Below, piece by piece: positions 3,781-62,513 of a stretch of DNA of 64,000 nucleotides; position 1 is the stretch's first letter, and each line of letters opens with the position of its first letter. The notes under the pieces are model-generated. The model made no database searches. It saw only the letters and a program-made list of their open reading frames with translations, and was not told the origin of the DNA. A program made the position numbers and the translations under genes. Source of the stretch: Heterodontus francisci (lineage: Eukaryota); NCBI RefSeq assembly GCF_036365525.1, contig NC_090372.1:17013630-17077629 (forward strand), written 5' to 3'.

Positions 3781-5068
3781 ACATATGAGGTCCCGTTACA
3801 AATCCCTGGGGAACATGACCAGTCACGTTCCACTATTCAAAGAAAGCTCCCTTTAGCCCTACTGTTTCTTACCACCACTATCCCATGTCACATGGTTACT
3901 TACCTCCAATTTTCAGCTCTCATTTTTGATAATCTTGTGTCTGGAACTTTCAAGAAGTCTTCTGAAAGCCCGGATCGACCAACCTTAAGCACTCCCCCTA
4001 TCCATCATACTAATGATCTCCTCAAAAAATTCAGTTAGAAAACTAAAACAAGTGTGCATACACAACCAGGCATGTGCAGCTATTTTAAAATCACAAGATA
4101 GTGCTCATTTGACAATCTTTTCAATGACTATGGCAAATACAAACTATGGAGCAATTTCTGGTGAAACCCCCATCCTACTGCATCATGAAAACAAATTCCA
4201 AATGCAGAGAACTGTCACAACGTGTTTTTGTATCAGTAACTTATCCCTACAAATACTGACACTTTGACTTACTCCTGAGGCTATTGGTCCTAGTTTCCTA
4301 AAGAGTGCCAGCTACCCAAAGAAAATGAGGGCCAGCAATTACAAAAAAAATTTACTAGTACTCCGCAACAGAAACAACTTGCTCGGAAGTCAGTGGGTAC
4401 AAAAATAAATGCAAGTATACAATGAGAGAAATCTGGTGACTTCAGGGATCTGCTGGAAGACATTAATTTGACATCCTGTGGTTATTTGAGTAATTTGCCA
4501 TGAATAAGACCTCCACTAACAAATTGTTAAAGTACAAAGGATGGTATCCCTGTCACTAGATGCAGTCCACATCACCAAATAGGTGATTTTCAGCTCCACT
4601 TGAGGCACGCGGGCAAAAATATGACTGCTAGTCATGTTTTCACCCTCCCTAAAGATCATTTTATCAATCACAGCATGGTTCAGACTTTGCCTGACCTTTG
4701 AGGAAACTACCAGCTGTAGCAAAACAACTGTATGTGCAGAGCAATTTTAAAATGAACCTGGCTGCCCTCCAGAACCTAAATGGAGTTGTTACAACAAACA
4801 GGAGCGACTGTGAATGCAAGCATAACATTACTGAGTATAACAGTGAAAGTGCCCACTGCTAAAGTTGGTGCATTCCATTAATATTGCAGAATTAATGAAA
4901 TATCCAACCAACAGCCACAGTAAACTTATTTTTAAAAACTTTTAAGCCACGTCATGTTGATATCCTGATCTAAAAGATACAATTCAGAAGTATCAACCGA
5001 GCTGACACTTGACACGTTGAACATTGGACAAGAATCAACTGTAGTGTGCAAAAACCAAAAGCACTGAC

Positions 5069-5239
5069 CTGAATTCTAGGGTTAACAGCTAGGTAAGGCT
5101 TGATACAGTTCTTGCTCTTGGGGTTAGTGCAGGGCTTGGTGTAAACTATGCCATACATCACCCAACAAGTGTGCAACACATAGGCAATAAATACCCCGAC
5201 AATCAGGGTGGTGAAAGAGGTTGTCTTCAACCCAAACAT
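5069..5239 (-). CDS. CLPTM1L: CLPTM1-like lipid scramblase, first coding exon (57 codons)
   Basis: MFGLKTTSFTTLIVGVFIAYVLHTCWVMYGIVYTKPC...NCIKPYLAVNPRIQ matches the CLPTM1L N-terminus (SSFTSLVVGVFVVYVVHTCWVMYGIVYTRPC). GTCAGT donor at 5068. A T-rich acceptor at 5279-5278 suggests the exon begins at 5277. Confidence 0.95.
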
Positions 5240-5439
5240 AGTGGGAACAGTTCAGACGTACAAGAACCGCAACATGTCTGAATTAAACATTAAAAAATTC
5301 ACAGTTGATGGTTAAACCACGCTAGAGCTCTATCCCCTCGCAATGGAAGCACAGCCGCACTCAATCAGGGTCAAAGCCCAAACACCCACAACCTCCCTCC
5401 TTCTGCCTCCATTGCTGCCTCCACCGGCAACTACTCCCT

Positions 5440-5560
5440 CAGCCAAATCCGCCTGGATATGACGTCACGACGCCCACCGCCGGAAGTAGAATCCCAGCGC
5501 GCGGCCGCCCGGACCGTTACATTCAAATTTGGCGCGCGGGAGCTGGCTTCCGCAGAGGAT
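5440..5560 (-). promoter_or_regulatory. CpG-rich housekeeping-type promoter of CLPTM1L
   Basis: Full CRE TGACGTCA at 5460-5467, ETS/GABP site CCGGAAGT at 5480-5487, and dense CpG (GCGCGGCCGCCCGG, GGCGCGCGGG) in otherwise CpG-poor DNA, ~220 bp upstream of the ATG. Confidence 0.75.
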
Positions 5561-5574
5561 TTTGGTCTTTGCAG

Positions 5575-8470
5575 TTCATCTCCCCTTCCTCCACTACCAT
5601 CTCCCCATCCTCCCTTCCCATCTCCCCCCACTCCCATCCTCCCTTCCCACCACTCCCATCCTCCCTTCCCATCTCCCCCCACTCCCATCCTCCCTTCCCA
5701 CCACTCCCATCCTCCCTTCCCACCTCCCCCATCCTCCCTTCCCACCTCCCCCCACTACCAACTCCCCACCTCCCCCCACTACCATCTCCCCACCTCCCCC
5801 CACTACCATCTCCCCACCTCCCCCCACTACCATCTCCCCACCTCCCCCCACTACCATCTCCCCACCTCCCCCCACTACCATCTCCCCATCCTCCCTTCCC
5901 ACCTCCCCCCACTACCATCCTCCCATCCTCCCTTCCCACCTCCCCCCACTACCATCCCCCCTTCCTCCCTTCCCACCTCCCCCCTTCCTCCCTCCCCACC
6001 TCCCCCCACTACCATCTCCCCACCTCCCCCCACTACCATCTCCCCATCCTCCCTTCCCACCTCCCCCCCTCCCCCCACTACCATCCTCCCTTCCCACCTC
6101 CCCCCACTACCATCCCCCCTTCCTCCCTTCCCACCTCCCCCCTTCCTCCCTTCCCACCTCCCCCCACTACCATCTCCCCACCTCCCCCCACTACCATCTC
6201 CCCACCTCCCCCCACTACCATCTCCCCATCCTCCCTTCCCATCTCCCCCCACTCCCATCTCCCCATCCTCCCTTCCCACCTCCCCCCACTCCCATCCTCC
6301 CTTCCCACCACTCCCATCCTCCCTTCCCACCACTCCCATCCTCCCTTCCCACCTCCCCCCACTACCATCTCCCCATCCTCCCTTCCCACCTCCCCCCACT
6401 ACCATCCTCCCTTCCCACCTCCCCCCACTACCATCCCTCCTTCCTCCCTTCCCACCTCCCCCCTTCCTCCCTTCCCACCTCCCCCCACTACCATCTCCCC
6501 ACCTCCCCCCACTACCATCTCCCCACCCTCCCCCCACTACCATCTCCCCACCCTCCCTCCCCACCTCCCCCCACTACCATCTCCCCACCTCCCCCCACTA
6601 CCATCTCCCCACCTCCCCCCACTACCATCTCCCCACCTCCCCCCACTACCATCTCCCCACCCTCCCTCCCCACCTCCCCCCACTACCATCCTCCCTTCCC
6701 ATCTCCCCACCCTCCCTCCCCACCTCCCCCCACTACCATCCTCCCTTCCCACCTCCCCCCACTACCATCTCCCCATCCTCCCTTCCCACCTCCCCCCACT
6801 ACCATCCCCCCATCCTCCCTTCCCACCTCCCCCCACTACCATCCTCCCTTCCCACCTCCCCCCACTACCATCCTCCCTTCCCACCTCCCCCCACTACCAT
6901 CACCCCACCTCCCCCCACTACCATCTCCCCACCTCCCCCCACTACCATCTCCCCACCCTCCCTCCCTCCACTACCATCTCCCCACCCTCCCTCCCTCCCT
7001 CCACTACCATCTCCCCACCCTCCCTCCCTCCCTCCACTACCATCTCCCCACCCTCCCTCCCTCCCTCCACTACCATCTCCCCACCCTCCCTCCCTCCCCC
7101 CACTACCATCTCCCCACCCTCCCTCCCCCCACTACCATCTCCCCACCCTCCCTCCCCCCACTACCATCTCCCCACCCCCACTCCCCCCACCACCATCTCC
7201 CCACCCTCCCTCCCCCCACTACCATCTCCCCACCCCCCCTCCCCCCACTACCATCTCCCCACCCCCACTCCCCCCACTACCATCTCCCCACCCTCCCTCC
7301 CCCCACTACCATCTCCCCACCCCCCCTCCCCCCACTACCATCTCCCCACCCCCACTCCCCCCACTACCATCTCCCCACCCCCACTACCATCTCCCCATCC
7401 TCCCTTCCCACCTCCCCCCCACTACCATCTCCCCATCCTCCCTTCCCACCTCCCCCCCACTACCATCTCCCCTTCCTCCCTTCCCACCTCCCCCCCACTA
7501 CCATCTCCCCATCCTCCCTTCCCACCTCCCCCCCACTACCATCTCCCCATCCTCCCTTCCCACCTCCCCCCCACTACCATCTCCCCATCCTCCCTTCCCA
7601 CCTCCCCATCCTCCCTTCCCACCTCCCCCCACTACCATCTCCCCATCCTCCCTTCCCACCTCCCCCCCACTACCATCTCCCCATCCTCCCTTCCCACCTC
7701 CCCCCACTACCATCTCCCCATCCTCCCTTCCCACCTCCCCCCCACTACCATCTCCCCATCCTCCCTTCCCATCTCCCCATCCTCTCTTCCCACCTCCCCC
7801 CCACTACCATCTCCCCATCCTCCCTTCCCACCTCCCCCCCACTACCATCTCCCCATCCCCCCTTCCCACTACCATCCCCCCTTCCCACTACCATCCCCCC
7901 TTCCCACTACCATCCTCCCTTCCCACCTCCCCCCACTACCATTTCCCCTTCCTCCCTTCCCACCTCCCCCCACTATCATCTCCCCTTCCTCCCTTCCCGC
8001 CTCCCCCCCCACTACCATCTCCCCTCCCTACCTCCCCCCCCACTACCATCTCCCCTCCCTCCCTACCTCCCCCCCCCACTACCATCTCCCCTCCCTACCC
8101 ACCTCCCCTTCCTCACTTCCCACCTCCCCTTCCTCACTTCCCACCTCCCCTTCCTCACTTCCCACCTCCCTCCACTACCATCTCTCCTCCCTCCCCATCT
8201 CCCCCCACTCCCACCTCCCCTCCTCCCCCCACTCCCACCTCCCCTCCTCCCCACTGCCATCTCCCCTCACCACTGCTACCTCCCAACCCCCACCTCTGTC
8301 TGCCAGCTCCCCTCTTGCCCACCCCCAACTCTCCTCCCCCATTGCCACCTTCCTTCCCTACCCTCCCCCTCTTACCTTCTCCTATGCTCACCTCCCCAAC
8401 CGCCATTTCTCCAACCCCAACTCTTCACCGCACTGTCACCTCCCTGCAACACCTCCCTTCCCCCTTTTTG
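5575..8470. repeat. C-rich compound minisatellite (core CCCCACCTCCCCCCACTACCATCT with ~21-37 bp variants)
   Basis: About 2.9 kb of tandem units, almost G-free on the + strand, degenerating towards ~8200-8470. Confidence 0.97.
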
Positions 8471-8865
8471 TCCCCATTCTTTTTCCCATATTCTCTAAGT
8501 TTTATTTTGCATTTATTTTACATTCTAAACTTAAGCTGTATTCCTAACTTTGCAGTTCCCATTGTGTAGCAGCTGGGGCCCACAGTACAAACTGGGTTCC
8601 ACTGGCTGCAAACTATTTCCAGAGGCTGGTCTTTAGCCACTGGCAAGGTGGAACATTGAAGTCAGGTCCAATGTATGATGCATGACCTTTTAGAAATAAT
8701 TTCGGGAGCTCTAAGTTCATGAAGAGGCTTTAGGAAGCTGTTTACACTGAAACAGTTATTGCATTGGTGACAACATGAAGGGTAACTTTCTAAGGTATAC
8801 AGTGACGTATGCTTTTAATCAGAGGTTAGAACACAATCTTTAAGACAATACTTTCCACCGAATTA

Positions 8866-11982: not shown

Positions 11983-11988
11983 TTTATT
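11983..11988 (-). terminator. Proximal poly(A) signal of the uncharacterised gene
   Basis: AATAAA ~40 nt after the stop, followed by a U-rich tract (11973-11961). Confidence 0.45.
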
Positions 11989-12029: not shown

Positions 12030-14064
12030 TCAATCCAATATGTCTGCCAGATCTTTATTCTCCACCACACTGATGGATTCAACCAGATTTTCACCTACTG
12101 TTGACACATTAGAATCCACCACCTCAAGAAAACTCACAGGTTCATATTTCTCCGAGGGCACGATCGAAGTTAGAGGACTACTAACATTCTGCATTACTGG
12201 ACTCTCTTCGTCATGTCCTTTGTGTGTATCCTTAGCAGCCTCCATTGCGTTATCCACAGGATTCTCCTGGTTGTCCCTTTCAATTGTTTCCATTAGGGAT
12301 TTTTGCTGATCAGCGTGCTTAAGGATGTTTGAATGAACTTCTCCAGAGGTAGAGTGTAATTCTACCGTGTGTGCTTTCTCTCCAATCACACCCACTGTAG
12401 TAATGCATACAGCACCTTTCTCCAAAATTTTAAAGATGTTACCTACCTCAGATGATGTGCTGCTCTGGACACAAGTAATGCAGCCCAGCAAAGTCTGACA
12501 TTTCTTGCCAGGCTCATCAATGTCCTTTTTTCCAACATCTATATTTTCCTCTTCAGTCTTCTGAAACTGTGACGAGCCCTCTTGCTTAGAATCCTTTCCC
12601 TCAAAACATTCAGCCTCCCAGTCTTCATGTATCGATCTGTTCTCATTTTTAGCATGTTGAAGTACAGTCAATTTTTCTTCAAGGCCCCCTGATTTTGATT
12701 GCGATATATCATATTCTGCATCCCAATCTTCTCCAGATGCAATTCTTTTTCCAGCAAAGATTGACGTCTTCTCTTTATCTGCAGATTCAATCATTTTGGA
12801 CCTATAATTCTCTCCCAAATGTTCATATTCCTCATGATGTGCAGAGCCAGTTTGTTCTCTTCTTTGCTGCCAGCTGCCTTCTGCATTCCCTGACCGGCGC
12901 ATTTGTTTGGGAGCTGAAAATGAATCTTGACTAGAAGACCAGGAGTTTTCTTCTTCACTTCTTTTCCTACTTCTGAAGTCTGACCCAAATGATCTTTCTC
13001 TGCCAAAACCACTCCTTTTATAACGATCTCCTCCACCTCCCCTCCTATAATTGCCACTTGAATCATCATTAAACCTGCCTGTGGACCTACCAAAACTCCT
13101 GTCTTGCCATTCACAATCATCATTCTGCCTACTTTTCCAGTTCCCAGAGGTTCCTTGAAGTGAAGTACTTCTGTATTCATTTCTTGTGAAAGAACTCCTT
13201 GCCTGATTAAAACCATTATTGCGCCTTTCGGTGTAAGAAGCTTCATCAAAGGGTTGCATTGGTCTGTAAGTATCATCCCATTTCTTTGTACCTGTGGAGA
13301 GTGAAGAGTTCATTTGTTCCCATCTTCGGTCTGAACGAGGTGCCATTTCTCTATTAGCATTATGCTGATCAGTATAGCTATAATTCTGACTTTGCCCTGA
13401 GTTCACTGGACCAGGCTGATAACCTGTATGAATACTGGTTTGATTGGGATAAATTGCATTTGTGGAATTATGTTGCTGGGTCAGGCATATAGGTACTGAA
13501 TGACAGTCAGCTACATTAGGAGGTCCCCCATGACAGGGGCAGGAGGTCAGAGGGATATGGCTATAAGGACTGGTGCTCGTGTTTCTATATGCAGATATAC
13601 CACATTGGTTGGCAAAGCATGGCACCTGGGGCATTACATTATAAGGGCTCATAACAGCATGATTTAGCAAATAGGCAAGAGCATCCAAACGCATGGGTAC
13701 AGTGATAGAAGATAAACTCCCAGTTGTCTGAAGAGCTTTTCCTAATACTGAAGGCTGTAAATCCAATTGATTGGATCCTGCAGGGCTTTGGCTGACTGAT
13801 GCATGGTTTTTGACTCGATCAGAGCTCTGCACAGCCGTATGACTTGTGACAGAGGATATTGGTTTTCTGGTGGTAGAACTCAACTCCCTGCTCTTCTTTT
13901 GACGTTCTTCTTTCTTGCAAAGGTCCACCACAGCAATTTTGTGACTCAACGTTGATTTTGAGGAGACGGTTGTCCCAACGTATGCACTACTCGTAACTTC
14001 CCTAGATTTTGCACTCAATTCTGTCATCATTTCACCTTGTACATCTTGAATGGAAGCAGATGGA
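12030..14064 (-). CDS. Uncharacterised, largely disordered protein, large terminal exon 2
   Basis: 2035-nt non-repetitive open frame. Strong acceptor TTTTTTAATTTTCAG at 14066-14065; the frame is open 34 nt upstream of the ORF-track ATG and needs a phase-2 upstream exon. Stop at 12030-12032. Confidence 0.85.
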
Positions 14065-14587
14065 CTGAAAATTAAAAAAAAAATTAAGTTACCATTTCAA
14101 TATTACATTAGGCAATATTTGGAATTCATCAACCCTATTCAGAACAGAAACAGAATTTCATTACCTGAAGGAATATGGTAACATTTCTTACAACTTACAT
14201 GAAATATGGTTCATTTGTTGGAAATCAGTTGCACTATCCATACACTTAAAATTTTGTGTGAGCACGTAAAAAAAAACCAAAAAAAATTTCAGAGACAAAC
14301 CATACCATATTCTGGGTTACCTACTATTATTTTACTTCTGGATACTAGATTCAAAGCCAGCCAGACTGACGGCATAAAACTCTAATCACTCGAATAAGCA
14401 AAAACCTATATAAAATGAGTTTGGAGAATTTTTACCCAATTTAAAAGCAATGGCAGTCTGCAGAAAAAAATCCCAATGAAGTACAATTTGGGATAATATT
14501 CTTCAAAGGATGTCTGATGCAAGAAATGCTAAAAATCATATCAACGCAGCAGGAAATGTCCTTCCAAGATTGGAATTAAGACACAAG

Positions 14588-15306
14588 GGGCTGAATTTTA
14601 CCGGCCCCTCGACCCGCGACGTCGAAGAGGGCCACCGCACATTACCGGTGGCGGGGGGACTTCGGTGCGGACCTCCTGCTGCATGGTGGTGGGCCCTTCA
14701 TCAGAATTTGCAAATAAACATTTGCCACCCCACACCAACATTATGGCCACCGTTCATACTTCAAGCGCCTTCGGAATTCCGAGGCAGGAACCTGGTGGGG
14801 GAGGGGGGAGGAATAAAATTTCAGGGCGGGAGGGGTGGGGCAGTGGGAAAATCACTTTTTATTGGATGTGGGGATGGTGGGAAGGGGTTGAAGGGCAAAG
14901 GTTAGAAGGTTGGTGGGGGGGAGGTTCGGGTCAGGAAAAAGGCATGTGTTGGTCATTTCGGCCATTGAAATGACCATTGGGGAGGTTGGTGAACGGCCAT
15001 CCACATCTTCATTATTTTTTTATAAAAATTGAAGAATGCTGCCCCTTTAAAAATTAAAAGTAATTCTAAGGGCTTAAAGCCCTTTAAAAATGGCAGTGGC
15101 GCCTGCGCGATGGCGCCGGATGCGTTGCCGGGGACGCAGCGGACCGCCCCCTGCATGTCATCAGGGCCAGCCTCTCTGCACCCTCAATTTCAATGAGACC
15201 CCGTGTGTAATATTGTGGGGGCTCCTCAGCGGCACTTCCGTGTCAGAAGGCCGCCAAGTTAAAAGTGCGCCGCCGCGAAGCACGACGCACGATTAAAGTT
15301 CAGCCC
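14588..15306. mobile_element. PIF/Harbinger-type MITE
   Basis: TIRs GGGCTGAATTTTA / TTAAAGTTCAGCCC; 3-bp TSD AAG on both sides. Confidence 0.85.
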
Positions 15307-15533
15307 AAGGTTTGATGGGTTCATACCTTGCGCTTATTCGCTTACGACTCTTACAGCAGTGAGAAGCTGACGACCTGCGATTGTGCTCAGATAAAGCAGA
15401 GCCAGACAATCTCCTGCAATTGCTTCTCTTCAGACCTGCACACCATTACCGCTAAAGTCCCCCAAGAATGATCCACTGAACCTCCTATTTCTCATCAACA
15501 TGCTGCACCCCTGCAATGCCATCCAAAGACATG

Positions 15534-16197
15534 GGGCAGAATTTTGTTCTGTCCTTGGAGGCGGGCAAACAAAACGGCAGTCGGCACCGTTCCTGACGTT
15601 GCCCAGGCCCACTGCCATGTTGTCTGGGGCAGGGAAGGCTGAGGACGGCCTTCCCACCCCAGGCCAATTGAGGCCTGACCACTTATGGGCCTCTTCCAAC
15701 CTTCCGCCTTCACCTCAAGGTAAAGCTTGCAGCCTCCTAGCAGGGTCGCGGTGCGGGATCCCTCCTTCGGGGGCAATCCAAGGCCCCCAGAGGGCCGCCG
15801 AGCAGCGATTGTGCCATCCTGGGAAGATGCATCCCCACCCTCACCAACCCCCACCCCATCGCCGAGACCTGCCTGAATGGTCCCAGCGACTTTGACCCCA
15901 CTCACCTTTCCCAGGGTCCCGGACATCGTCAATGCTGCAGATCATCCTGCAGTACCGGCAGTCGCCAGTGCTCCCAGTGGCACTGCTGGTACGACAAAGC
16001 TGCCAGCCTTCCGAATGGCCATCAGCTCTGGAGGCAGGAGCTCATCCCTTAAAGGGACAGCATCCCCAACGGCGGGCAGTTAATTGCCTGCCCGCCTTCA
16101 AATGGCTTTGGGGCTCTGAATGAGGGCCGAGGCTGGGTCTCCCCCCAAACTTCTGGCCTGCCGCCCAGACCTCCGTTGCCATAGTAAAATGCAGCCC
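15534..16197. mobile_element. PIF/Harbinger-type MITE
   Basis: TIRs GGGCAGAATTTT / AAAATGCAGCCC; TSD ATG on both sides. Confidence 0.85.
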
Positions 16198-16525
16198 ATG
16201 ATGTCTCAGTCTTCTTGTTTGGCTCGCCCTCATGACACTGGCTGCTCCTTTCTCAGTGCTGCTTCCACTCAATGTTGCTGTTGCTGCTCCTGGCTCTGCA
16301 AACAATGGTGGTGTCCACCCCATTCCCCCCACCCCCTACCACATCTTACAACCCAATCTCCCGACTCCTAGCCCCCTTTGCTCCCCGAAACCTCTTCCCC
16401 AGTCTCCATCCCTTCCTGAGCCCACTTCTCTCCTAAGCCACATTCCCCAATCTCCATCCAAACCCTCCCCCAGATTTCAGAGGTTCCTTGAATGCTGAGA
16501 CACCTTCTGCAATTTCAGAGACTTC

Positions 16526-17366
16526 AGGCTGAATCTTCTGTGCCCACCGCCAATGTCGAAGGCAAGTTTATCAGTGCAAGGGGTGGAGGGGGAACAGTGT
16601 CAAAATAACATCATTGGCGTAGGGGATGGTGGGATGGGTTTGAGGTTAAAGTTTATGCAGTTTTGGGGGTGGGTGGGGGGAAAGTCACATAGGGGCAAAT
16701 TTTACAGACGCAGGGGTCATGGTGGGGGAGGCCAGAAAATGCCTCTAGGAGAGGCCCGGTAAGGACCTGAAAGCTGGGAAGGCCCAGCCCGATACTGCTG
16801 GTGGAGGCAAGGCCTTGTGGTGGCAACCCCCATTCGGTGATGGGAGTCGAATTTAAATATGTAAATATATGGGCGGGGGGGGGAAGTTAAGTTTTCAGAG
16901 AGGGAGGGGTAGCGGAGTGAAACATTTTTCATTGATCTAGGGGGTGGTGGGAAGGGGTCATAGTTTATAAACTTTGGGGAGGGTGGAAGGTCAGGATCAC
17001 AAGGTAAGTTTTTTTTGGAGGGGGAGAGGGAAAGTAATAAATTGCTTAGTCAATGGAGGGGTGGGAGAGGGGCTTGAAAGTTTTATTGCATTTTTTACTT
17101 TAAATTTATTACATATGTATCTTTAAAAATTTAGATGAAGTGAAAGGGCTTACACGCCCTTTAAACATGGCGCCAGCACCTGCACAGTGGCACCAGACGC
17201 TGTTGCTGGGGACGGAGCACCCGCCCGCTCCACATCATCAGGGACGGGCAGTCCTCCCTGGCCGTGTAATTGAGCCACCATGTATTATATCGTGGTGGCT
17301 CCTCGGAGTAAAGCCCGCACATCTGGGCAGCCATCTTAGAAGTGCACCACCGATAAAACGCTGCCC
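16526..17366. mobile_element. Degenerate PIF/Harbinger-type MITE
   Basis: Termini AGGCTGAATCTT / TAAAACGCTGCCC; internal similarity to 14588-15306 (CCCTTTAAA.ATGGCGCC); TSD not matched. Confidence 0.6.
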
Positions 17367-18471
17367 ATTGAGTTCATATAATTTTTTGGTTAAGCAGTTC
17401 TGAGCACGCCATTATATGAATATCAGACATGGAAATGGTATGGCAAAGATTCAGGAGACTAACACTGGAAATGAGAGACTAAAATTATGAAAAAGCTCCA
17501 GAACTGGAACAGAGAAAGCTGCGAACTTTTCAATCTTATGAAATGCTTTGAGGAGTAAACATGAAAAGAGTGTTTCCATTGGTTCAACACTTTAAAAAAA
17601 ACGTGAAAACAAAAATCCTTTTTCCCCTACACGGATCGTTGGGAACTGTTAATCACAAGTTGCTTTTCGGTCAGACTATAATATCATTTAAAATGGAATT
17701 GAGACAGTAAATACAAAAGTATTGAAAAGTAATACAAAAGAGTGGGAAAGGGCAGAGAAATGAGATTAGAGTAGATAGTTCTAATTGAAGAGATAGCACA
17801 ATCACAACGGTTCAACATGCTGTAATTTCCATGAACCCATGACAGTTCCATTTCCTTGGTGTAGGCTTCATCCAGGCTGGTTTGTTTGCAATAGAAAATA
17901 ACAAAGTCCTTTAAGATGCTTGCAAAAACCTATTGGAACTTTTATTTCGGGAGGACAGGACACAACACAATTTATCCAATTGTTTTCCCTGTGCACAACT
18001 GGTCTGTGCATCTGCGTTTTTTTTTCCATCCACAACTTATACTAAAAATCCAAATAGAAGAGAACTTAATTATTTTATGCCAGACTAATACTTCCCTCAT
18101 CCTTTCCTTTTTACCACTGCTTCAAGGATCCAACAGCTTAGCCTTCTTGCTATGATGCCCCACTTCTTGTTAAAGCACCTCTCTTCTCTCCACTCCCACC
18201 CCAACCAATTCCCAAACCCACCTAACTGTCCTTACAACAGATAATAGGCAAACAATTCCCCAGTTCACTTTATGTTTGAAGACTGAGCCAAAACATGGGG
18301 AAGGTGTGTCACGGGTTTACAGCTTCAGGCCATATTTCAGTACTGAATCACTTTTTTTCTTCCTCTTTCAGCCTCTTCTTGAAAAGCACAAGAACATTGA
18401 ACAAAAATGTCTTGTTTTCAATAACAAAAAATCTTTTGCACGTTTGTCAATGTTAACATTCTAGGTAAATC

Positions 18472-18581
18472 TGAAAAAAAAACACAGCAGTGCTGTGTAT
18501 CTATCCCATTGAAAAAAACACAGCAGTGCTGTGTATCTATCCCATTGAAAAAAACACAGCAGTGCTGTGTATCTATTCCAT
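18472..18581. repeat. Three ~36-bp tandem repeats, each with an internal palindrome
   Basis: Unit TGAAAAAAACACAGCAGTGCTGTGTATCTATCCCAT; ACACAGCA-G-TGCTGTGT is an 8-bp inverted repeat. Confidence 0.95.
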
Positions 18582-18903
18582 CCAACTTCTGCTTTGGGTA
18601 CAGTGCTACTCACTCTCACTGTATCTAAACACGAATGATTAAGTTCTTAACCTTCGTCACTTTTTCTGAAAATGCCATAAGCTTAAAATCAGCCAAGGGT
18701 TTTCCCAACAAACAATCCCGAGGGTGATTCAAGGGCAGACCTCTCCCCACATTATCAGCACCTCATCCACCCACTCCCCAACATGAGACACAACTTTTAA
18801 CTTAAAGATGCTTTTAGGGCCGAAGATTCGAAATTCCTCTCCTCTCCCCATTTTGCCGAATTTACTAGGGTCTAATCATTTTTCTTTTTCCAATAATTCT
18901 TAC

Positions 18904-18944
18904 CCCTCTTTAAAGTTTACAATCTCTCCTTCTTCTACTTCCAT
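18904..18944 (-). CDS. Uncharacterised protein, coding exon 1 (MEVEEGEIVNFKEG)
   Basis: Strong Kozak context gagaagATGG, in-frame TAA 30 nt upstream, donor GG|GTAAGA at 18903. Its 41 nt give phase 2, which fits the 14064 acceptor (GG+T = Gly) for a 691-aa product. Confidence 0.72.
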
Positions 18945-21363: not shown

Positions 21364-22055
21364 TTACACAAGGGTGGTCAGCTGTCGGTCAGTCTTATCC
21401 TCCTGATGATTTGTACGCTTTGTATATTCGTCTTCCTCAAAGTCATGTTGGACTGCATTGCTCTCATAAATATCTTTGGCAATTTTCTTCAGAGTTCTCA
21501 GTGTCAGGACACTCAAAACTGCACTTGCACAATACAAGCAAGCAGAAATTAAGCCAAACAAAGCTACAGCTGCATCTCCTCCCTGAACATCACAATTCAT
21601 AAAGGTGTAACCATGGCGGGCATATAAACGGTTTCTTAATCTACAGACTTCTGTGCTATTTACTGAAATTATAAGATGCAGGTAAAGTCCAACGCCCACT
21701 ATATACCCTACACAAGCAAGAATATTAAACACAAATTCAGCCATTATAAGTTTTGAGGAAAGACGGTGAAGAGGTTTACTACCACCCACCAAAAAGAGAA
21801 GAGTGAGAGAACCTATGGCAATGCTAAAAGTTACCCCTGTGTATACTCCAGGGCTTCTCATTTGGCTGTATTGCATATCAAGATCCCGCACCTGCTGCAG
21901 CTCAGTGCCTTGGAAAGGGCTATATGCCGAATCAATGCTAAAAGCTCCTGCCCCAAGTCCTCCCATAGACGTGTACCCAGATATTGCTGCTTGGGAAGCA
22001 GCTACGCAGATCAGGACCATGAGATTGGTTATAATCTCACTAAACTGCAAGATAC
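21364..22055 (-). CDS. MARVELD3-like: MARVELD3-like, distal alternative terminal exon (MARVEL domain; isoform ~358 aa)
   Basis: Four hydrophobic segments. YSPFQGTELQQVRDLDMQY, NSTEVCRLRNRLYARHG and NCDVQGGDAAVALF resemble the MARVELD3 isoform with YSPFEGTELEQVRQLDQQY / NSTDTCKTRERLYARKG. Acceptor TGTTCACAG at 22057-22056, phase 1. Confidence 0.9.
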
Positions 22056-22902
22056 CTGTGAACAAAACACAAACATTTTAAAACCTTGCAATCACATAAG
22101 AACTTTGCATTTTGTAAAGGTTAAACACTTGCCTCACATTTCACTGGTCATATGTGATATGATGAATCAGTGGCTCTTCATAATTAAATTATAGCATAAT
22201 TTGGAGTTTGTAGCCAGGATGAGAGCTAGCGTTAAGATTTGTGCCCGTTGTGGGCTACAACACATGCGGTCAGGGCCTGAATCCTGTCCCCACTGGAGAA
22301 GGGAAACTTTCATTCCAAATGCCCCAGCTGGATCACATTACCACCCCACTGGGACAAGAATTTGTTTTTATTCATTCGGGGGATGTGGGCGTCACTGGCT
22401 ATGCCAGCATTTATTGCCCATCGCTAATTGGCCTTGAGAAGGTGATGGTGAGCCACCTTCTTGAACTTGGGGATTAGCTTATGCCTGCATGGCCTGGTAA
22501 AGAAAAGTTTCTTTTAAAGGGTTTATTCAGCAATAACTATTATAGTCATTATTTAAATGTTGAATATAGTAAGGCTGCTTCACATGTCTGGAAGGTCATA
22601 AAATATAACAGGATAAATAGTCTTCTTGACCTGGCAGTGCATTTTGCTGACACTGATTACTAGTCGCCCTCAATTCTTGTCCTCGATGAGCACAAGAAAT
22701 ATGAATGAAAGGACACGAACAACAAAAAGCAAAACACAAAACGAGATCCAAATGCAGAAGTACAAAATAGTTAGTTTTTTAACAATATTATTTTAAAACT
22801 AATTTTGTTGTAATTTACTTAAAATGAGGGGGTTGGGGGGGAACAGAGAGAGTGAAGTGATTAATAGTTTTGCTTCTTCTCTGTCCTGACTGATTTTTTT
22901 TT

Positions 22903-24464
22903 TAGAACATTACAGCGCAGTACAGGCCCTTCGGCCCTCGATGTTGCGCCGACCTGTGAAACCATCTGACCTACACTATTCCATTTTCATCCATATGTCT
23001 ATCCAATGACCACTTAAATGCCCTTAAAGTTGGCGAGTCTACTACTGTTGCAGGCAGGGCGTTCCACGCCCCTACTACTCTCTGCGTAAAGAAACTACCT
23101 CTGACATCTGTCCTATATCTTTCACCCCTCAACTTAAAGCTATGTCCCCTCATGTTTGCCATCATCATCCGAGGAAAAAGACTCTCACTATCCACCCTAT
23201 CTAACCCTCTGATTATCTTGTATGTCTCTATTAAGTCACCTCTCCTCCTCCTTCTCTCTAACGAAAACAACCCCAAGTCCCTCAGCCTTTCCTCGTAAGA
23301 CCTTCCCTCCATACCAGGCAACATCCTAGTAAATCTCCTCTGCACCCTTTCCAAAGCTTCCACATCCTTCCTATAATGCGGTGACCAGAACTGCACGCAA
23401 TACTCAAGGTGCGGCCTCACCAGAGTTTTGTACAGCTGCATCATGACCTCGTGGCTCCGAAACTCGATCCCCCTACTAATAAAAGCTAACACACCATATG
23501 CCTTCTTAACAGCCCTATTAACCTGGGTAGCAACTTTCAGGGATTTATGTACCTGGACACCAAGATCTCTCTGCTCATCTACACTACCAAGAATCTTCCC
23601 ATTAGCCCAGTACTCTGCATTGCTGTTACTCCTTCCAAAGTGAATCACCTCACACTTCTCCGCATTAAACTCCATTTGCCATCTCTCAGCCCAGCTCTGC
23701 AGCCTATCTATGTCCCTCTGTACCCTACAACACCCTTCGACACTATCCACAACTCCACCGACCTTCGTGTCATCCGCAAATTTACTAACCCACCCTTCTA
23801 CACCCTCATCCAGGTCATTTATAAAAATGACAAACAGCAGTGGCCCCAAAACAGAACCTTGCGGTACACCACTAGTAACTAAACTCCAGGATGAACATTT
23901 GCCATCAACCACCACCCTCTGTCTTCTTTCAGCTAGCCAATTTCTGATCCAAAGCTCTAAATCACCTTCAACCCCATACTTCCATATTTTCTGCAATAGC
24001 CTACCGTTGGGAACCTTATCAAACGCCTTACTGAAATCCATATACACCACATCCACTGCTTTACCCTCATCCACCTGTTTGGTCACCTTCTCGAAAAACT
24101 CAATAAGGTTTGTGAGGCACGACCTACCTTTCACAAAACCGTGCTGACTATCGCAAATGAACTTATTCTTTTCAAGATGATTATAAATCCTATCTCTTAT
24201 AACCTTTTCCAACATTTTACCCACAACCGAAGTAAGGCTCACAGGTCTATAATTACCAGGGCTGTCTCTACTCCCCTTCTTGAACAAGGGGACAACACTT
24301 GCTATCCTCCAGTCTTCCGGCACTACTCCTGTCAACAATGACAACATAAAGATCAACAACAACAGCTCTGCAATCTCCTCCCTGGCTTCCCAGAGAATCC
24401 TAGGATAAATCCCATCTGGCCCAGGGGACTTATCTATTTTCACACTTTCCAAAATTGCTAACAA
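22903..24464 (-). mobile_element. Young 5'-truncated CR1 LINE with uninterrupted reverse transcriptase frame
   Basis: 497 codons without stop: KSPGPDG, NYRPVSLTS, QHGF, DFSKAFD, GVPQGSVLGP, FADD, RPHLEYCVQFW. Endonuclease domain absent; short 3' UTR and A-tract at ~22893-22903. Confidence 0.95.
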
Positions 24465-24745
24465 TTGATCACGCGGTCATGTTTAAAGATGCAACAATCT
24501 TCTTGGATGGGTGTGAAATTTTTTACAGCATGGTGGCACTGTAAAAATTGTGATCTGTACTGAACATAGCTCATTTCTTTAGTATTTCTTAACATTTATA
24601 TAAAAAGGTTTTGACGAATGCAAAGAAAACTAAGATATGTCCACTTTTTGATACACATGTGCTTTATTTATATGATTATATAGACATCAAGATCAAAGAG
24701 TTTGTCAACATTTGCCAATGAATTCTCCAAACTGGTTGACTAATT

Positions 24746-34896: not shown

Positions 34897-35594
34897 TTAT
34901 ATGTACGAAAGGTCAGATTTCATTGGCACCATCTCAGGGGATGTAGCATGTTCCTGCACTGTAGAAATCCCCGGAGATTTTGTATATTCTGGTCGTGTTG
35001 CTTGTATCTCTCGGTAAGCCAAAACTCCAAGCACTACACTGGCAATGTAAACAATTATCAGCATCATGGCAAAGATAGAAACTGCAACTTCTGTGCCTAA
35101 TATGGCACATTTCACTGAGCTGTAGCCATGTCGATTGTAGAGCGACTCCCTCTGCTTGCACACATCAGTGGCATTAGTTTTATGAATGAAGTGAAGGTAC
35201 AAAGCCACTCCTATGATGTAGGCCACAGCTGCAAGAGCCTTTGCTACACATTCCATAATCAGGAAGTTTGAGAATTTACTGTTCTGCATGGAGGATCTGT
35301 TGTGCTGCATTACCCATCCGACAACAAGAAAGGCCACAGCAAAAGCAAACAGAAGAACACTAAGCCCTACTGCACAGTACACGGTGACCGACTTCTTGTT
35401 GTTGTACCATACGTCTAGTTCACCGACCTGCTGTATTTCGTGATTTAGAAATCCACTGTTGGCATAACCCATGTTGTAATAATAGGTACTCCCGAAGCCT
35501 CCAACACTAGCGAAGCCTGCAGAGGCACTTTGGGTTGCTGCAGCACAGATCAGCACCACCAGGTTGAGAATGATTTCAAACATCTGCAACAATC
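34897..35594 (-). CDS. MARVELD3-like: MARVELD3-like, proximal alternative terminal exon (MARVEL domain; isoform ~360 aa)
   Basis: GLLQMFEIILNLVVLIC, YYYNMGYANSGF and VCKQRESLYNRHGYSSVKC resemble the other MARVELD3 isoform (QMLEVLLNLLILAC, YYYQFGGAYSGF, VCKERQALYQSKGYSGFGC). Acceptor TTGCAG at 35596-35595, phase 1; AATAAA at 34718-34713. Confidence 0.9.
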
Positions 35595-36984
35595 CTGCAA
35601 CAACCAGATTGAGGAAGCTGTTAATGGGAAAATACAGCACACTCAGTCCAACACCTCACCAGAACAGACCAATAGAGGATACAGGAACGATGGTGGAGAC
35701 AGAAACTCTCAATTCTTTTAAAAGGTACCTGGACATGCACCTGAGGTGCTGTAACCAGCAAGGCTGTGGATCAGGTGCTGGAAGGTGGGATTAGATTGGG
35801 CAGCTAGTTTTTTCAGCTGGCACAGACACGATGGGCTGAATGGCCTCCTTCTGTGCCGTAATTTTTCTATGGTTCTATAATGGAGGACCACTGAGTGTGT
35901 AAGAGAGTCAGTCCATAACTAGGCTGTATTATACAGATAAGGAAGAATTTCAATAGAAGTACTAGAATACACAGTAGTTAGAAATTACTACAAAGATTAG
36001 ATGCTCATTGTGCTTTTAATAGATAAACCTACGGTTCAAGCAATAATGTTATAGCGTAGATGTCACACAGCATTTAAAATGCATGCTTTTCGTGTATGTA
36101 TGTTGTATTTTTGATATTCTAACATGATACTAATGAAATCTGATATTTTGATTGCCTTTATCGCGTACATTGGTACCTTTTAAGTTCAATTGAACAAAGC
36201 AAGATATAGTTTACCTGACCTACAGGTTCATTTATCTGTTCATTCATTGGGGTATAATTCCGTTCAGGACTGGGAGACATTGTAACAAAAAAAACTGCAC
36301 ATGCTGGAAATCCAAAACAAGAACTGAAAAATGCTGGAGACACACAGCAGGTCAGGCAGTCTCCATGGACAGAACAGACCAGTAAATATTTCAGCATGGA
36401 CCTTTCACAAAAACTGTCTTGACAAATGGTACTCTATCCCAAACCATTAACAGATCTTTTCTTCCCTGCCTGACCCGCTGATTGTTTCTAGCATTTTCAG
36501 TTCTAAAAACTGTATACATTGGTATATTCAAATCCAGATCATGAACATAGTTCAGGTTAGACTGGAAAAACGCAAAGTATTGCTATTTTGGAACTGCAGT
36601 TTTCATTCCTAGACAGCTCTTGCTGCTTTGCTATTACTGTGCAGGTCCATGGCAGCTTCTAATCTGCCTTGTCCCTTCAGCTCCTATTGCACTGCAACAA
36701 ACGTTAACAGGCTTCCCACCCGCCAGTGCTTAAAGAGAGCTCAAAGTTTGACGGCTTTAATTAATGTGGCTTCCGCTATAAAATCAGTGTAAACTACAAC
36801 TGGCACAAATATGCTGACCAAGTCATCTCCTTCCCTGATAGGACCCCATTCAGCGGGTATGAATCTACTTCTGTTGACCATTATCTCTCTTACCAGAACT
36901 AGTAGGCCTTTATGCAAAATACAGCACATCATCTTATTCATTATTGTGGTATCTGTCTTCAATATGATTAATATTATTACTACT

Positions 36985-41489: not shown

Positions 41490-42860
41490 ATTCATTTTAT
41501 GGGATGTGGGCATCGCTGGCCAGTCCAGCATTTATTGCCCATCCCTAATTGCCCTTGAGAAGGTGGTGGTGAGCTGCCTTCTTGAATCACTGCAGTCCAT
41601 GTGGGGTAGGTACACCCACAGTGCTGTTAGGAAGGGAGTTCCAGGATTTTGACCCAGCAACAGTGAAGGAATGGTGATATAGTTCCAAGCCAGGATGGTG
41701 TTTGGCTTGGAGGGGACCTTGCAGGTGGTGGTGTTGTTCCCACGTACCTGGCCCCTTCTTCTAGAGGTCGTAGAGGTCGCAGATTTGGAAAGTGCTGCCT
41801 GAGTAGCCTTGGTGCATTGCTGCAGTGCATATTGTAGATGGTACACACTGCTGTCACTGTGCTTCGGTGGTGGAAGGAGTGAATGTTTGTGGACAGGGTG
41901 CCAATCAAGTGGGCTGCTTTGTCCTGGTTGCTGTAGAGCTTCTTGAGTGTTGTTGGAGCTGCACCAAGCCAGGCTAGTGGAGAGTATTCCATCACACTCC
42001 TGACATGTGCCTTGTTGATGGTGGATAGGTTTTCGGGAGTCAGGAGGTGAGTTACTCGCTACAGGATTCCTAGCCTCTGGCCTGCTCTTGTAGCCATGGT
42101 ATTTATATGGCTACTCCAGTTCAGTTTCTGGTCAATGGTAACCCCCAGGATGTTGATAGTGGGGGATTCAGCGATGGTAATCCCATTGAATTTCAAGGGG
42201 AGATGGTTACATTCTCTCTTGTTGGGAGATGGTCATTGCCTGGCACTTGTGTGACGCAAATGTTACTTGCCACTTATCAACCCATGCCTGGATATTGTCC
42301 AGGTCTTGCTGCATTTCTACACGGACTGCTTCAGTATTTGAGGAGTTGCAAATGGTGCTGAACATTGTGCAATCATCAGCGAACATCCCCACTTCTGACC
42401 TTATGATTGAAGGATGGTCATTGATGAAGCAGCTGAAGATGGTTGGGCCTAAGACACTACCCTGAGGAACTCCTGCAGTGATGTCCTGGAGCTCAGATGA
42501 TTGACCGCCAACAACCACAACCATCTTCCTTTGTACTAGGTATAACTCCAACCAGCGGAGAGTTTTCTCCCTGATTCCCAGCGACTCCAGTTTTGCTAGG
42601 GCTCCTTGATGCCACATTCGGTCAAATTATGTCTTGATGTCAAGGGCAGTCACTCTCACCTCACCTCTTGAGTTCAGCTCTTTTGTCCATGTTTGAACCA
42701 AGGCTGTCATGAGGTCAGGAGCTGAGTGTCCCTGGCGGAACCCAAACTGAGTGTCACTGAGCAGGTTATTGCTAAGCAAGTGCTGCTTGATAGCACTGTC
42801 AATGACACCTTCCATCACTTTACTGACGATTGAGAGTAGACTGATGGGGCTGTTATTTGG
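41490..42860 (-). mobile_element. CR1/L2-group LINE (second family), decayed 3' half
   Basis: PISLLSIVSKVMEG, QFGFR, GVPQGSVLGP, MFADD and MEYSPLAW across frameshifts. Same family at 58975-59827 (+) and 22365-22470. Confidence 0.88.
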
Positions 42861-58785: not shown

Positions 58786-60265
58786 GGGCAGGATTTTCCT
58801 CGTGGGCTTCAGGACCCTACGCCAGGGTTAGAAACCCGCACTGTGGGGAAACGTTCACCAGGCTGCGGTTTTCCCAAATTGTCCAATTAGGAGCAAGAGA
58901 GTGGGCTTGCCATCTTTCAGGCTCTTGAAGTTGGAGGGCCAATAGGAGGCCCTCTAGCACTGAAGCAGCAGCAGGTTCAGATACTGAAGCAGTCTGTGTA
59001 GAAATGCAGCAAGACCTGGACAATATCCAGGCTTGGGCTGATAAGTGGCAAGTAACATTCGCGCCACACAAGTGCCAGGCAATGACCATCTCCAACAAGA
59101 GAGAATCTAACCATCTCCCCTTGAAATTCAACGGCATTACAATCGCTGAATCCCCACTATCAACATCCTAGGGGATACCATTGACCAGAAACTAAACTGG
59201 AGTAGCCATATAAATATTGCGGCTACAAGAGCAGGTCAGAAGCTAGGAATCCTCTGGAGAGTAACTCACCTCCTGACTCCCCAAAGCCTGTCCACCATCT
59301 ACAAGGCACAAGTCAGGAGTGTGATGGAATACTCTCCACTTGCCTGGATAGGTGCAGCTCCAACAACACTCAAGAAGCTCGACACCATCCAGGACAAAGC
59401 AGCCCGCTTGATTGTCACCCCATCCACAAACATTCACTCCCTCCACCACCGACACACAGTGACAGCAGTATGTACCATCTACAAGATGCACTGCAACAAC
59501 GCACGAAGGCTCCTTAGACAGCACCTTCCGAACCCGCGACCTCTACCAACTAGAAGGACAAGGGCAGTAGATTCATGGAAACACCACCACCTGCAAGTTC
59601 CCCTCCAAGCCACACACCATCCTGACTTGGAACTATATTGTCATTCCTTCACTGTTGCTGGGTCAAAATCCTGGAACTCCCTTCCAAACAGCACTGTGGG
59701 TGTCCCTACCCCACATGGACTGCAGCGGTTCAAGAAGACAGCTTACTACCTTCTCAAGGGCAATTAGGGATGGGCAATAAATGCTGGCCTAGCCAGCGAT
59801 GCCCACATCCCATGAATGAATAAAAAAGGCTGCCATTTCAGGTAAGTAAGAGAGAGGGTGCCTCTATTTTGAGTGCCCTCTCTCCAACTTGACAAAGTTT
59901 TAAATAAAAAAGAATCTACAGGGTGACTTGTGGCTGCAGCTGAAGCCAGGCAGGTGGGGAGGGCCTCAAAGCCTGCTTGGAACACTGGTCCCCCTGATCT
60001 GCTGCCAGGAGGCCGCCTCCAGATAGCTGGGCTGTTCCCTGACACCTCCAGGTGCCTGGTGGCTGACTGGAAAATTCTAGTCGGCTTCAGACAATAGGCC
60101 TTAACAGGCCATTAAACAGCTGTAATCGGCGACCTTCCTGCCCTGCTGATCCCCCTCCGCCCCACCCCCTCAAGGATGGTGCCGGGAAACCTGCACACCA
60201 GCTGGCGGTGTGAAATTCCATGCCACCTCCATACTCACCCCCATTGGGGCCTAAAACTCCAGCCC
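58786..60265. mobile_element. Harbinger-type MITE interrupted by a LINE (58975-59827)
   Basis: Termini GGGCAGGATTTTCC / TAAAACTCCAGCCC, flanks TGT/TTT; GC-rich MITE-like sequence on both sides of the LINE. Confidence 0.65.
58975..59827 (+). mobile_element. CR1/L2-group LINE 3' fragment
   Basis: YKAQVRSVMEYSPLAW motif; ends ATGAATGAATAAAAAA; highly similar to 41490-42340. Confidence 0.88.
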
Positions 60266-60899: not shown

Positions 60900-62513
60900 T
60901 GATGCAAGGCCTCCCCCTTTCACCGTGCAAGATTGTGCAGAGCACAGCAGACCACCACAATATACGCGAGACCCTCACTGGGGCCTACTGCAGGGCTCCA
61001 CAGGATCGATCCAGGCACTAGAATCTCATCCTCAGCAGCCCAATGGCCTGCTCGATGGTCGCTCAGGTGGAGCTGTGGTAGGTGTTGTACCTCTCCTCTG
61101 TTGCATTGCGAGGGTTCCTCACTGGCGTGAGTAGCCATGTCTTCATGGGTAGCCCTTGTCTCTGAGAATCCTTCTCTAAAGGCGAATGAGGGGGCCGGAA
61201 AAGCTATGACACCTTGGACTGCCCAAGTTTGTCGGCATCGTGGCTGCCGGAAGCAGGCACACACCTGCAGGAAATGCTTTTGGTGGTCGCAGATCGGTTG
61301 AACATTGATGGAATGAGAGCCCTTCCTGTTGATGAAGGTGACTGGATGCTGTGTGGGAGCCTTGATGGTGGCATGTGTACAATCTATCACACCTTGCACC
61401 TGGGGGAATCTATCAATGGCCCCGAAGCCCATGGCCTTCTCAGCCTGACTGTTAGGGTCGGTCTGGTACCGCACATAGTCGCCGTCTCCCTTGAACAGGG
61501 CATTGGACATCTCCTTGATGCAGTGGTGGGCTGCGGCCTGGGAGACCCCACACATGTCCTCAGTGGATCCCTGGAAAGAGCCGGAGATGTAAAAGTTGAA
61601 TGCCACAGTGATCTTCAGGCCACCAAAGCCCAGGGGTCGCAGCTCATCCTGCGGCATTGCAAATAAATCAGTGGCTGCTTCCCTGGAGAGTTGCAGTCTT
61701 CGCTGGCACTGTCGCTCGGACATTTGGAGGCAGCTGAGGCAAGTCCAGTACACTCTCTGGCGTGCATAGGCCCTTCTTGGCACGGCCATCTGCTGTGGCT
61801 CCCCCAGTCAATCTTCACCAGCTTGCCCAGTCGCCACCAGAAGCTGTCTCCCTCTGAGTCTCTGCTGCACAGTGTGGGGATCTGCAAAGATTGGGTGAAT
61901 GAGACCCATGCCAGCTGGTTGCACCCCCTCCCTTGCAGTCCCTCGACAAAGGACCTTGCCTTTGTAAATGTTCCCCTGCCCACTCCCCTCTGAACACAGG
62001 CTAATGCCCCTCAGCACCCACCCTTGCAGAGAACCCAGCACCCGAGATGAAGCCCACTCTTGTCTGGAGGGCTGCATCGCTTTTGGACAATGGCCGCTGC
62101 ACCCGCCACCCCCCCCCCCCCCCACTCCCCTTCCCGTATTCAATGCTCCACATGGCTGCCTTCCCGTGGCGTCAATGAGGCCTTGATGCTGCCACCTTTA
62201 AACGTCCGGGGATCTGAAGGAATGTGATCCCCGTGTGCCATTCACTAAATTGGAAACCCCTCCGATAAAATCCGAGTCAGGCCGATGCAAATACATGCTA
62301 AATACTTGTTCAGCAATTGTAATTGCAGTCCTGTCGCATCTTGGCAGCAACAACAACTCGGACCTTTCCCACCGCTGACAAAATCCAGAACTGGCATCAC
62401 GACATCGAGTTTCCGGATGAATGCATCCCTCATTTTTTGCCCCCCCCCCCCCCCCAATCCCCATCCCCCCATGTCTCCACTCCCGCTCCTAATGGCTGGA
62501 TAAAATTCAGCCC
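60900..62513 (-). mobile_element. Decayed PIF/Harbinger transposon with one intact TIR
   Basis: TIR GGGCTGAATTTTA at 62513-62501 (outer flank TAG) upstream of the transposase pseudogene; the other end is not recognisable. Confidence 0.8.
60920..61789 (-). pseudogene. Harbinger (HARBI1-like, DDE_Tnp_4) transposase pseudogene
   Basis: FYISGSFQ, GVSQ, FPQVQGVIDCTH, FINRKGSHSINVQ and CCALHNLA motifs; frameshift after VCACF leaves the (G)DKGYP motif (61160-61146) in another frame. Confidence 0.88.

Follow-up and report, generated by a model that had tools for sequence, protein, structure and literature searches.

The window examined here is a 64,000-nucleotide (nt) stretch of DNA from the shark Heterodontus francisci (NCBI RefSeq assembly GCF_036365525.1, contig NC_090372.1, positions 17,013,630 to 17,077,629 of the forward strand). 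Between window positions 12,030 and 18,944, the minus strand carries a two-exon gene whose protein product, by sequence comparison, is a member of the C19orf84 family. The gene consists of the following parts:

18904..18944, minus strand: coding exon 1 (41 nt), with its ATG at 18944, ending within a Gly codon in phase 2
14065..18903, minus strand: GT..AG intron of 4839 nt in phase 2, repetitive in part
12030..14064, minus strand: coding exon 2 (2035 nt including the stop codon), with TGA at 12032-12030
11983..11988, minus strand: AATAAA, a putative polyadenylation signal by sequence match

Exon 1 is directly followed on its 3′ side by GTAAGA, and a T-rich acceptor tract with a CAG end directly precedes position 14064. 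The joined exons encode 14 + 677 = 691 amino acids, of which the 677 residues from exon 2 follow the split codon. An identical 14-residue start with the same joint is present in the RefSeq models of Chiloscyllium plagiosum and of Scyliorhinus torazame isoform X2, such that the in-frame splice proposed by the initial annotation of this DNA agrees with both the sequence and the models of other sharks. Other Scyliorhinus isoforms carry a 34-amino-acid insert or start further downstream, and the insert of the X1 isoforms has no clear match within the window.

That annotation also proposed a search for reads spanning the 18904/14064 junction. No contig joining the two positions is among the matches listed for 4 + 4 sequencing runs. 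Exon 2 is covered in pieces by low-depth contigs from runs whose tissue is unknown and which are only guessed to be RNA, and the unique intron bins have no such coverage; many repeat-derived contigs map to the intron at 14.3-17.4 kb. In the exon-1 bin, depth from run contigs is present at 80% likeness and gone at 94%, and coverage of this exon is thus unsupported. At the level of sequence, the gene is confirmed as real and spliced, with two exons and with orthologues in other sharks. As a separate observation, a unit of ~40 nt is present in three near-copies on the start side of the intron (18474-18586).

Two proteins annotated as ‘uncharacterized’, from Scyliorhinus canicula (LOC119965835, 68% identity) and from Chiloscyllium plagiosum (LOC122564297, 61%), are the nearest, followed at 52% by an unnamed contig protein. 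A single Pfam family was found for the H. francisci protein, namely PF17703 (PIWI-interacting RNA (piRNA)-mediated silencing protein C19orf84), which matches exon-2 residues 111-152 (E 1.2e-4, 22.4 bits). This family is also the top match for all three shark homologues. A 100-amino-acid piece gives E 4.5e-6 and 27 bits. When the PF17703 model was searched against the 6.0 Gb genome, the best match was the present locus (E 0.06), and neither this search nor one with the helix region described below revealed a second copy.

Because these Pfam scores are modest, a shark-only profile was made from the four shark-type sequences and searched against 1.84 billion (1.84e9) representative proteins at E<=1e-3. 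The 15 matches consist of the four shark-type sequences and 11 tetrapod sequences from newt, axolotl, two caecilians, three frogs, one lizard and three turtle-type members. These include a newt protein (E 1.7e-31), an axolotl protein of 931 amino acids (7.4e-20), a cluster in which caecilian LOC115081739 sits (6.9e-17) and a Mauremys protein named ‘C19orf84 homolog’ (9.1e-5). A follow-up search from a turtle-like homologue returned 10 turtle-type proteins, with more bearing the C19orf84 name. Within the helix region, 23 of 34 residues are identical to those of the Pelodiscus ‘piRNA-mediated silencing protein C19orf84 homolog’.

In the reverse direction, a profile of five NCBI-named turtle C19orf84 proteins scores this open reading frame (ORF) at 35.9 bits; the runner-up among 1243 window frames reaches 2.8 and the top shuffle 5.5. 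A profile of the 11 tetrapod sequences yields 194 bits, where the highest-scoring of 500 shuffles reaches 8.4, a value that is partly circular because 9 of its 11 rows come from shark-profile matches or their clusters. The initial annotation had known of no mammalian counterpart and had listed a hit to a known gene as grounds for giving up its view. Such a hit was found, as Pfam and homology in both directions identify C19orf84.

Gene layout points the same way. In PMC7618676 (a 2025 survey), Dataset EV1 gives axolotl C19ORF84 (AMEX60DD015896) with coding exons of 20 + 2776 nt and the label LOC115081739. These lengths correspond to 931 amino acids plus a stop codon, and the arrangement of a tiny first coding exon, a phase-2 intron and one large exon matches the 41 + 2035 nt layout of the shark gene. 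The 931-amino-acid protein retrieved by the profile, XP_069460919, appears to be the product of this published gene, given the equal length and the common LOC115081739 label. Shark and axolotl motifs are collinear along about 390 residues, and 433 aligned columns show 31% identity; the homologues from newt, caecilian, frog, lizard and turtle share this motif order. A midpoint-rooted tree of 16 sequences, which include neither mammals nor an outgroup, resolves sharks, salamanders, caecilians, frogs and reptiles as separate groups, each strongly supported, as expected.

Of 31 candidates from a word-based search for short sequences related to the helix region, none was accepted; the shark profile gave one chance match in the PDB (E 2.3), and the catshark protein had no match in the ESM Atlas. 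The turtle protein did retrieve C19orf84 clusters from the ESM Atlas at 0.83 and 0.81, which we treat as a lead only. On these comparisons the shark gene is a C19orf84 family member and is likely to be an orthologue of C19orf84. Its family membership is much surer than its function.

The following features are recognized within the coding region:

18921..18935, minus strand: EEGEI motif, a candidate ligand that fits the ARS2-binding pattern [ED][ED]GE[ILV]
13608..13733, minus strand: C19orf84 signature (Pfam PF17703 positions 46-90), containing the sole predicted helix at 13650-13688
13314..13643, minus strand: disordered stretch rich in Pro, Ser, Asn, Gln, Tyr and Cys, by composition
12834..13313, minus strand: basic disordered stretch rich in Ser, Arg and Gly, with Trp and Phe, by composition and alignment
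12960-12980, minus strand: conserved RKR cluster, a possible nuclear localization signal, by alignment
12711..12731, minus strand: acidic-Trp motif 1 (EDWDAEY), with invariant W and Y
12606..12626, minus strand: acidic-Trp motif 2 (EDWEAEC), two motif copies being present in 11 of 17 rows
12033..12503, minus strand: acidic C-terminal tail, poorly conserved, by alignment and composition

An AlphaFold2 prediction from a 13-row alignment assigns a predicted local distance difference test (pLDDT) score below 50 to 608 of the 677 exon-2 residues and contains one confident helix at residues 126-138 (pLDDT about 81). This outcome bears out the description of a mostly disordered protein in the initial annotation, whose positions for the helix segment (13650-13697), for the Q/N/P/Y/C and R/G/S-rich stretches and for the acidic tail were also correct. 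The accompanying statement that no folded domain can be recognized holds as well, but the helix is a recognizable signature of family PF17703. Of the 13 invariant columns in the shark-tetrapod alignment, 10 fall within or just before this helix, and acidic-Trp motif 1 contributes two more, its W and Y. At least one copy of the acidic-Trp motif is present in all 17 rows, where shuffles expect at most 0.03, with the pattern having been derived from the same sequences on which it was scored. Amphibian and turtle homologues have a similar Pro/Gln/Cys-rich stretch after the helix. Judged by alignment, the conserved core of the protein is the helix plus the acidic-Trp motifs, and not EEGEI.

The disordered regions had been interpreted previously as those of an orphan, Vasa-like condensate protein. 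The N-terminal disordered region of Vasa/DDX4 carries RG and FG dipeptides, as does the shark stretch, and RG, FG and RS dipeptides are indeed modestly enriched above chance (16 versus 8.9 expected) in this disordered protein. However, the shark protein lacks the DEAD-box helicase core, Pfam reports no Vasa/DDX4 or helicase family match, and no sequence relationship to Vasa was found by Pfam, profile or PDB searches. Reciprocal homology to C19orf84 refutes the orphan status, and we consider the reading as an orphan, Vasa-like protein very improbable; the protein may still form condensates. The germline role suggested at the same time is likely correct.

C19ORF84 is reportedly a disordered protein with a conserved central helix that serves as the SPOCD1 contact (Zoch 2024). 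By AlphaFold2 and alignment, the shark protein likewise is predicted to be disordered apart from a single conserved helix at its centre. According to PMC7618654 and PMC13757620, in fetal germ cells of the mouse SPOCD1 and C19ORF84 bind directly, SPOCD1's association with DNMT3L depends on C19ORF84, and C19ORF84 ties MIWI2/PIWIL4-piRNA to de novo transposon methylation. By analogy, we think it probable that shark C19orf84 is a disordered adaptor in piRNA-directed transposon methylation with a role as in mouse. PIWIL4-piRNA complexes would pick out transposons in germ-cell nuclei, and the single helix of the adaptor would hold SPOCD1 as a putative contact. The acidic-Trp repeats would bind a second partner, whereas the basic stretch would serve nuclear entry or contact with nascent RNA. 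In this manner the adaptor would assist in recruiting the DNMT3L-DNMT3A/B methylation machinery to these elements, in a pathway that would operate in shark germ cells.

Comparison with mouse and human C19ORF84 was made via the Pfam model only. The shared features are the helix matching PF17703 positions 46-90, the disorder, and a genome with likely copies of SPOCD1 and DNMT3L. In contrast, the shark protein has 691 amino acids, where the Pfam model has 200 positions, and it possesses extended acidic and RG/S-rich regions, an N-terminal EEGEI and other chromosomal neighbours, and the function is known from mouse only.

Candidate partner genes are located in the same genome as follows:

C31:16,512,244-16,615,535, minus strand: SPOCD1-like gene with TFIIS-M and SPOC domains, with PTP4A just upstream and ADGRB downstream, all on one strand
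C6:114,750,514-114,778,214, minus strand: DNMT3L-like gene, with open ADD and C-terminal exons, proper splice sites and degenerate catalytic motifs
C16:72,167,946-72,215,320, plus strand: DNMT3B-type gene with all catalytic motifs intact, used as a control for the C6 gene
C1:273.63 Mb: TEX15
C6:89.51-89.53 Mb, C23:3.97-3.98 Mb and C47:18.86 Mb: three PIWI-clade genes

There are three TFIIS-M + SPOC genes in the genome, and those on C3 and C16 we take to be PHF3 and DIDO1. The third, on C31, stands in the order PTP4A, SPOCD1, ADGRB, which is also the human gene order around SPOCD1. Scanning 400 kb at this gene with a simple pattern revealed no PHD exon, and a single-sequence fold of its last exon has a mean pLDDT of 36, a confidence too low to use. 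The C31 gene is likely to be SPOCD1.

Three DNMT3 ADD loci are present, of which the one on C3 is DNMT3A. For the degenerate gene on C6, all three tested exons score best on DNMT3L (43.2 versus 35.1, 48.2 versus 43.7, and 60.8 versus 54.0 bits). A pattern scan of 200 kb around this gene did not find AIRE or PFKL, and the Pfam model PF00145 missed the DNMT3 exons. Based on domains, motifs and exon scores, the C6 gene is likely a DNMT3L copy. Among the PIWI-clade genes, the one on C6 is presumably PIWIL4, by elimination only; an identity test against the PDB returned no PIWIL4 chain.

Several observations weigh against an adaptor role of this kind or against the assignments on which it depends. 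The Pfam score (22-27 bits) lies below the curated PF17703 cut-off of 40. Ten of the 11 tetrapod matches fit this family and are all under the cut-off as well (19.1-32.6), including the NCBI-named Mauremys member at 32.1, and therefore the cut-off misses accepted non-mammalian members. Neither the shark-only profile nor the search from the turtle homologue retrieved a mammalian sequence, and so the mammalian link depends on Pfam, on the names that NCBI gives to the turtle proteins and on the axolotl gene as published. No named chimaera, ray, coelacanth, lungfish or ray-finned fish is among the 15 matches, two of which are unnamed. With regard to the partners, PHF3 (55.5) outscores SPOCD1 (44.3) on the SPOC exon of the C31 gene, so the SPOCD1 call rests on gene order. 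The ADD exon of the DNMT3B-type gene on C16 also leans slightly to DNMT3L (31.4 versus 29.2), which makes that exon non-discriminating and leaves the degenerate motifs of the C6 gene to carry part of the weight. Frog homologues of C19orf84 are present, yet frogs were scored without DNMT3L in the survey (PMC7618676). The gene can thus persist without the full pathway, and its presence is no proof of methylation. Finally, synteny with tetrapod C19orf84 loci is not kept. These loci are given as human chr19, turtle chr20 and axolotl chr1p (PMC7618676), and the comparison was made by chromosome number, with the neighbours of the tetrapod loci not compared.

This altered location might indicate a relocated or paralogous C19orf84-family gene with another job in sharks. 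Neighbours that differ from those in human, turtle and axolotl would fit this explanation, as would an identity to the tetrapod proteins of only 21-26% in the alignment and low-depth contigs in runs of unknown tissue. However, the genome yielded a single copy, both motif order and exon phase have been retained, and every candidate partner is present. Moreover, the three tetrapod loci, their neighbours uncompared, are themselves on differently numbered chromosomes. We regard a divergent function of this type as distinctly unlikely.

The N-terminal EEGEI motif bears on a second alternative. The pattern [ED][ED]GE[ILV] is a genuine ARS2 ligand in disordered regions, as given in PMC9402713. EEGEI or EDGEI is found at the N-terminus in H. 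francisci, two Scyliorhinus species and two Chiloscyllium species, even though the flanking residues vary. In tetrapods, only one of 12 rows contains the pattern (newt, in the C-terminal part), indicating that any ARS2 binding would be no more than a lineage-specific addition. As initially proposed, EEGEI fits the published ARS2 pattern; it is kept in sharks but is not part of the conserved core. The tetrapod homologues lack an N-terminal EEGEI and also differ from the shark protein in their tail and locus.

Known ARS2 ligands such as Red1, ZFC3H1, ZC3H4, ZC3H18 and FLASH (ELM class LIG_ARS2_EDGEI_1) resemble the shark protein in a five-residue match, which in the latter lies in a disordered N-terminus. 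They differ in that the shark protein has no zinc finger and no other homology to them, and in that the tetrapod members of its family are mostly without the motif. Through EEGEI, shark C19orf84 may additionally engage ARS2 on nascent transposon RNA.

Under a rival version of this idea, the shark gene would be a C19orf84 orthologue in a type of nuclear piRNA silencing that is older and does not depend on methylation. The helix would bind SPOCD1, and EEGEI would engage ARS2 and the cap-binding complex on nascent transposon transcripts and cause their termination or decay. Such a function would accord with the retention of the motif in five shark species, with its occurrence elsewhere in the chain of the newt homologue, and with the persistence of frog homologues where DNMT3L is reported lost (PMC7618676). 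In opposition to this model, the motif is missing from 11 of the 12 tetrapod rows, one S. torazame isoform begins downstream of it, and the shark protein has a single copy whereas ZFC3H1, ZC3H4, ZC3H6 and ZC3H18 have two or three (PMC9402713). Furthermore, a DNMT3L-like gene is present in the same genome. We consider methylation-independent silencing unlikely, and we favour the adaptor role in piRNA-directed methylation.

Because likely SPOCD1 and DNMT3L copies are present in the same genome, piRNA-directed methylation defence is likely as old as the first jawed vertebrates. The shark gene is a new member of an established family, and confirmation of its partners would shift the date considerably. 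If this view is true, the origin of the germline defence and of the DNMT3L cofactor, which was later used for imprinting, moves to the root of jawed vertebrates. By comparison, PMC7618676 has C19orf84 first seen in axolotl, Spocd1 from lobe-finned fish on and Dnmt3l not in cartilaginous fish, such that the parts of piRNA-directed DNA methylation are first together in axolotl. Its sole cartilaginous fish is the elephant shark, which is scored 0 for C19orf84, Spocd1 and Dnmt3l and 1 for PIWIL4, TEX15 and SPIN1; it is also scored without DNMT3B, a type of gene that the present shark has on C16. The same table gives 0 for C19orf84 in newt, Xenopus and a lizard (Anolis), whereas we found homologues in newt, Xenopus laevis, two other frogs and an agamid lizard. 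According to PMC12191198, Dnmt3l was lost in fish genomes. No reports of C19orf84, SPOCD1 or DNMT3L in sharks were found in the literature searched, with most subscription papers falling outside that search. With the unannotated loci now named, the question becomes testable in catsharks and bamboo sharks. In addition, the shark-to-turtle alignment reveals which short C19ORF84 motifs persist.

With respect to its surroundings, the gene lies on C2 directly upstream of CLPTM1L and on the same strand:

4973-5251, minus strand: probable first coding exon of CLPTM1L, which follows the gene immediately on its downstream side and continues left of the window

The CLPTM1 paralogue is on C40 in the present genome, and human CLPTM1 is on chr19. 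Between the gene and CLPTM1L, a C-rich simple repeat of ~3 kb (~5500-8560) has a GC skew near -1 and contains long spurious Pro-rich ORFs. Upstream of the gene there are MARVEL-domain-like coding exons at 21364-22077 and 34897-35655, both on the minus strand, which probably form a tandem pair and match Pfam under its cut-off (E 8.7e-7 and 5.1e-5). The window also contains what we take, from their motifs, to be retroelement reverse-transcriptase-like fragments and a transposase-like ORF (22971-24476 on the minus strand, 41532-42626, 59150-59767 and 60920-61807).

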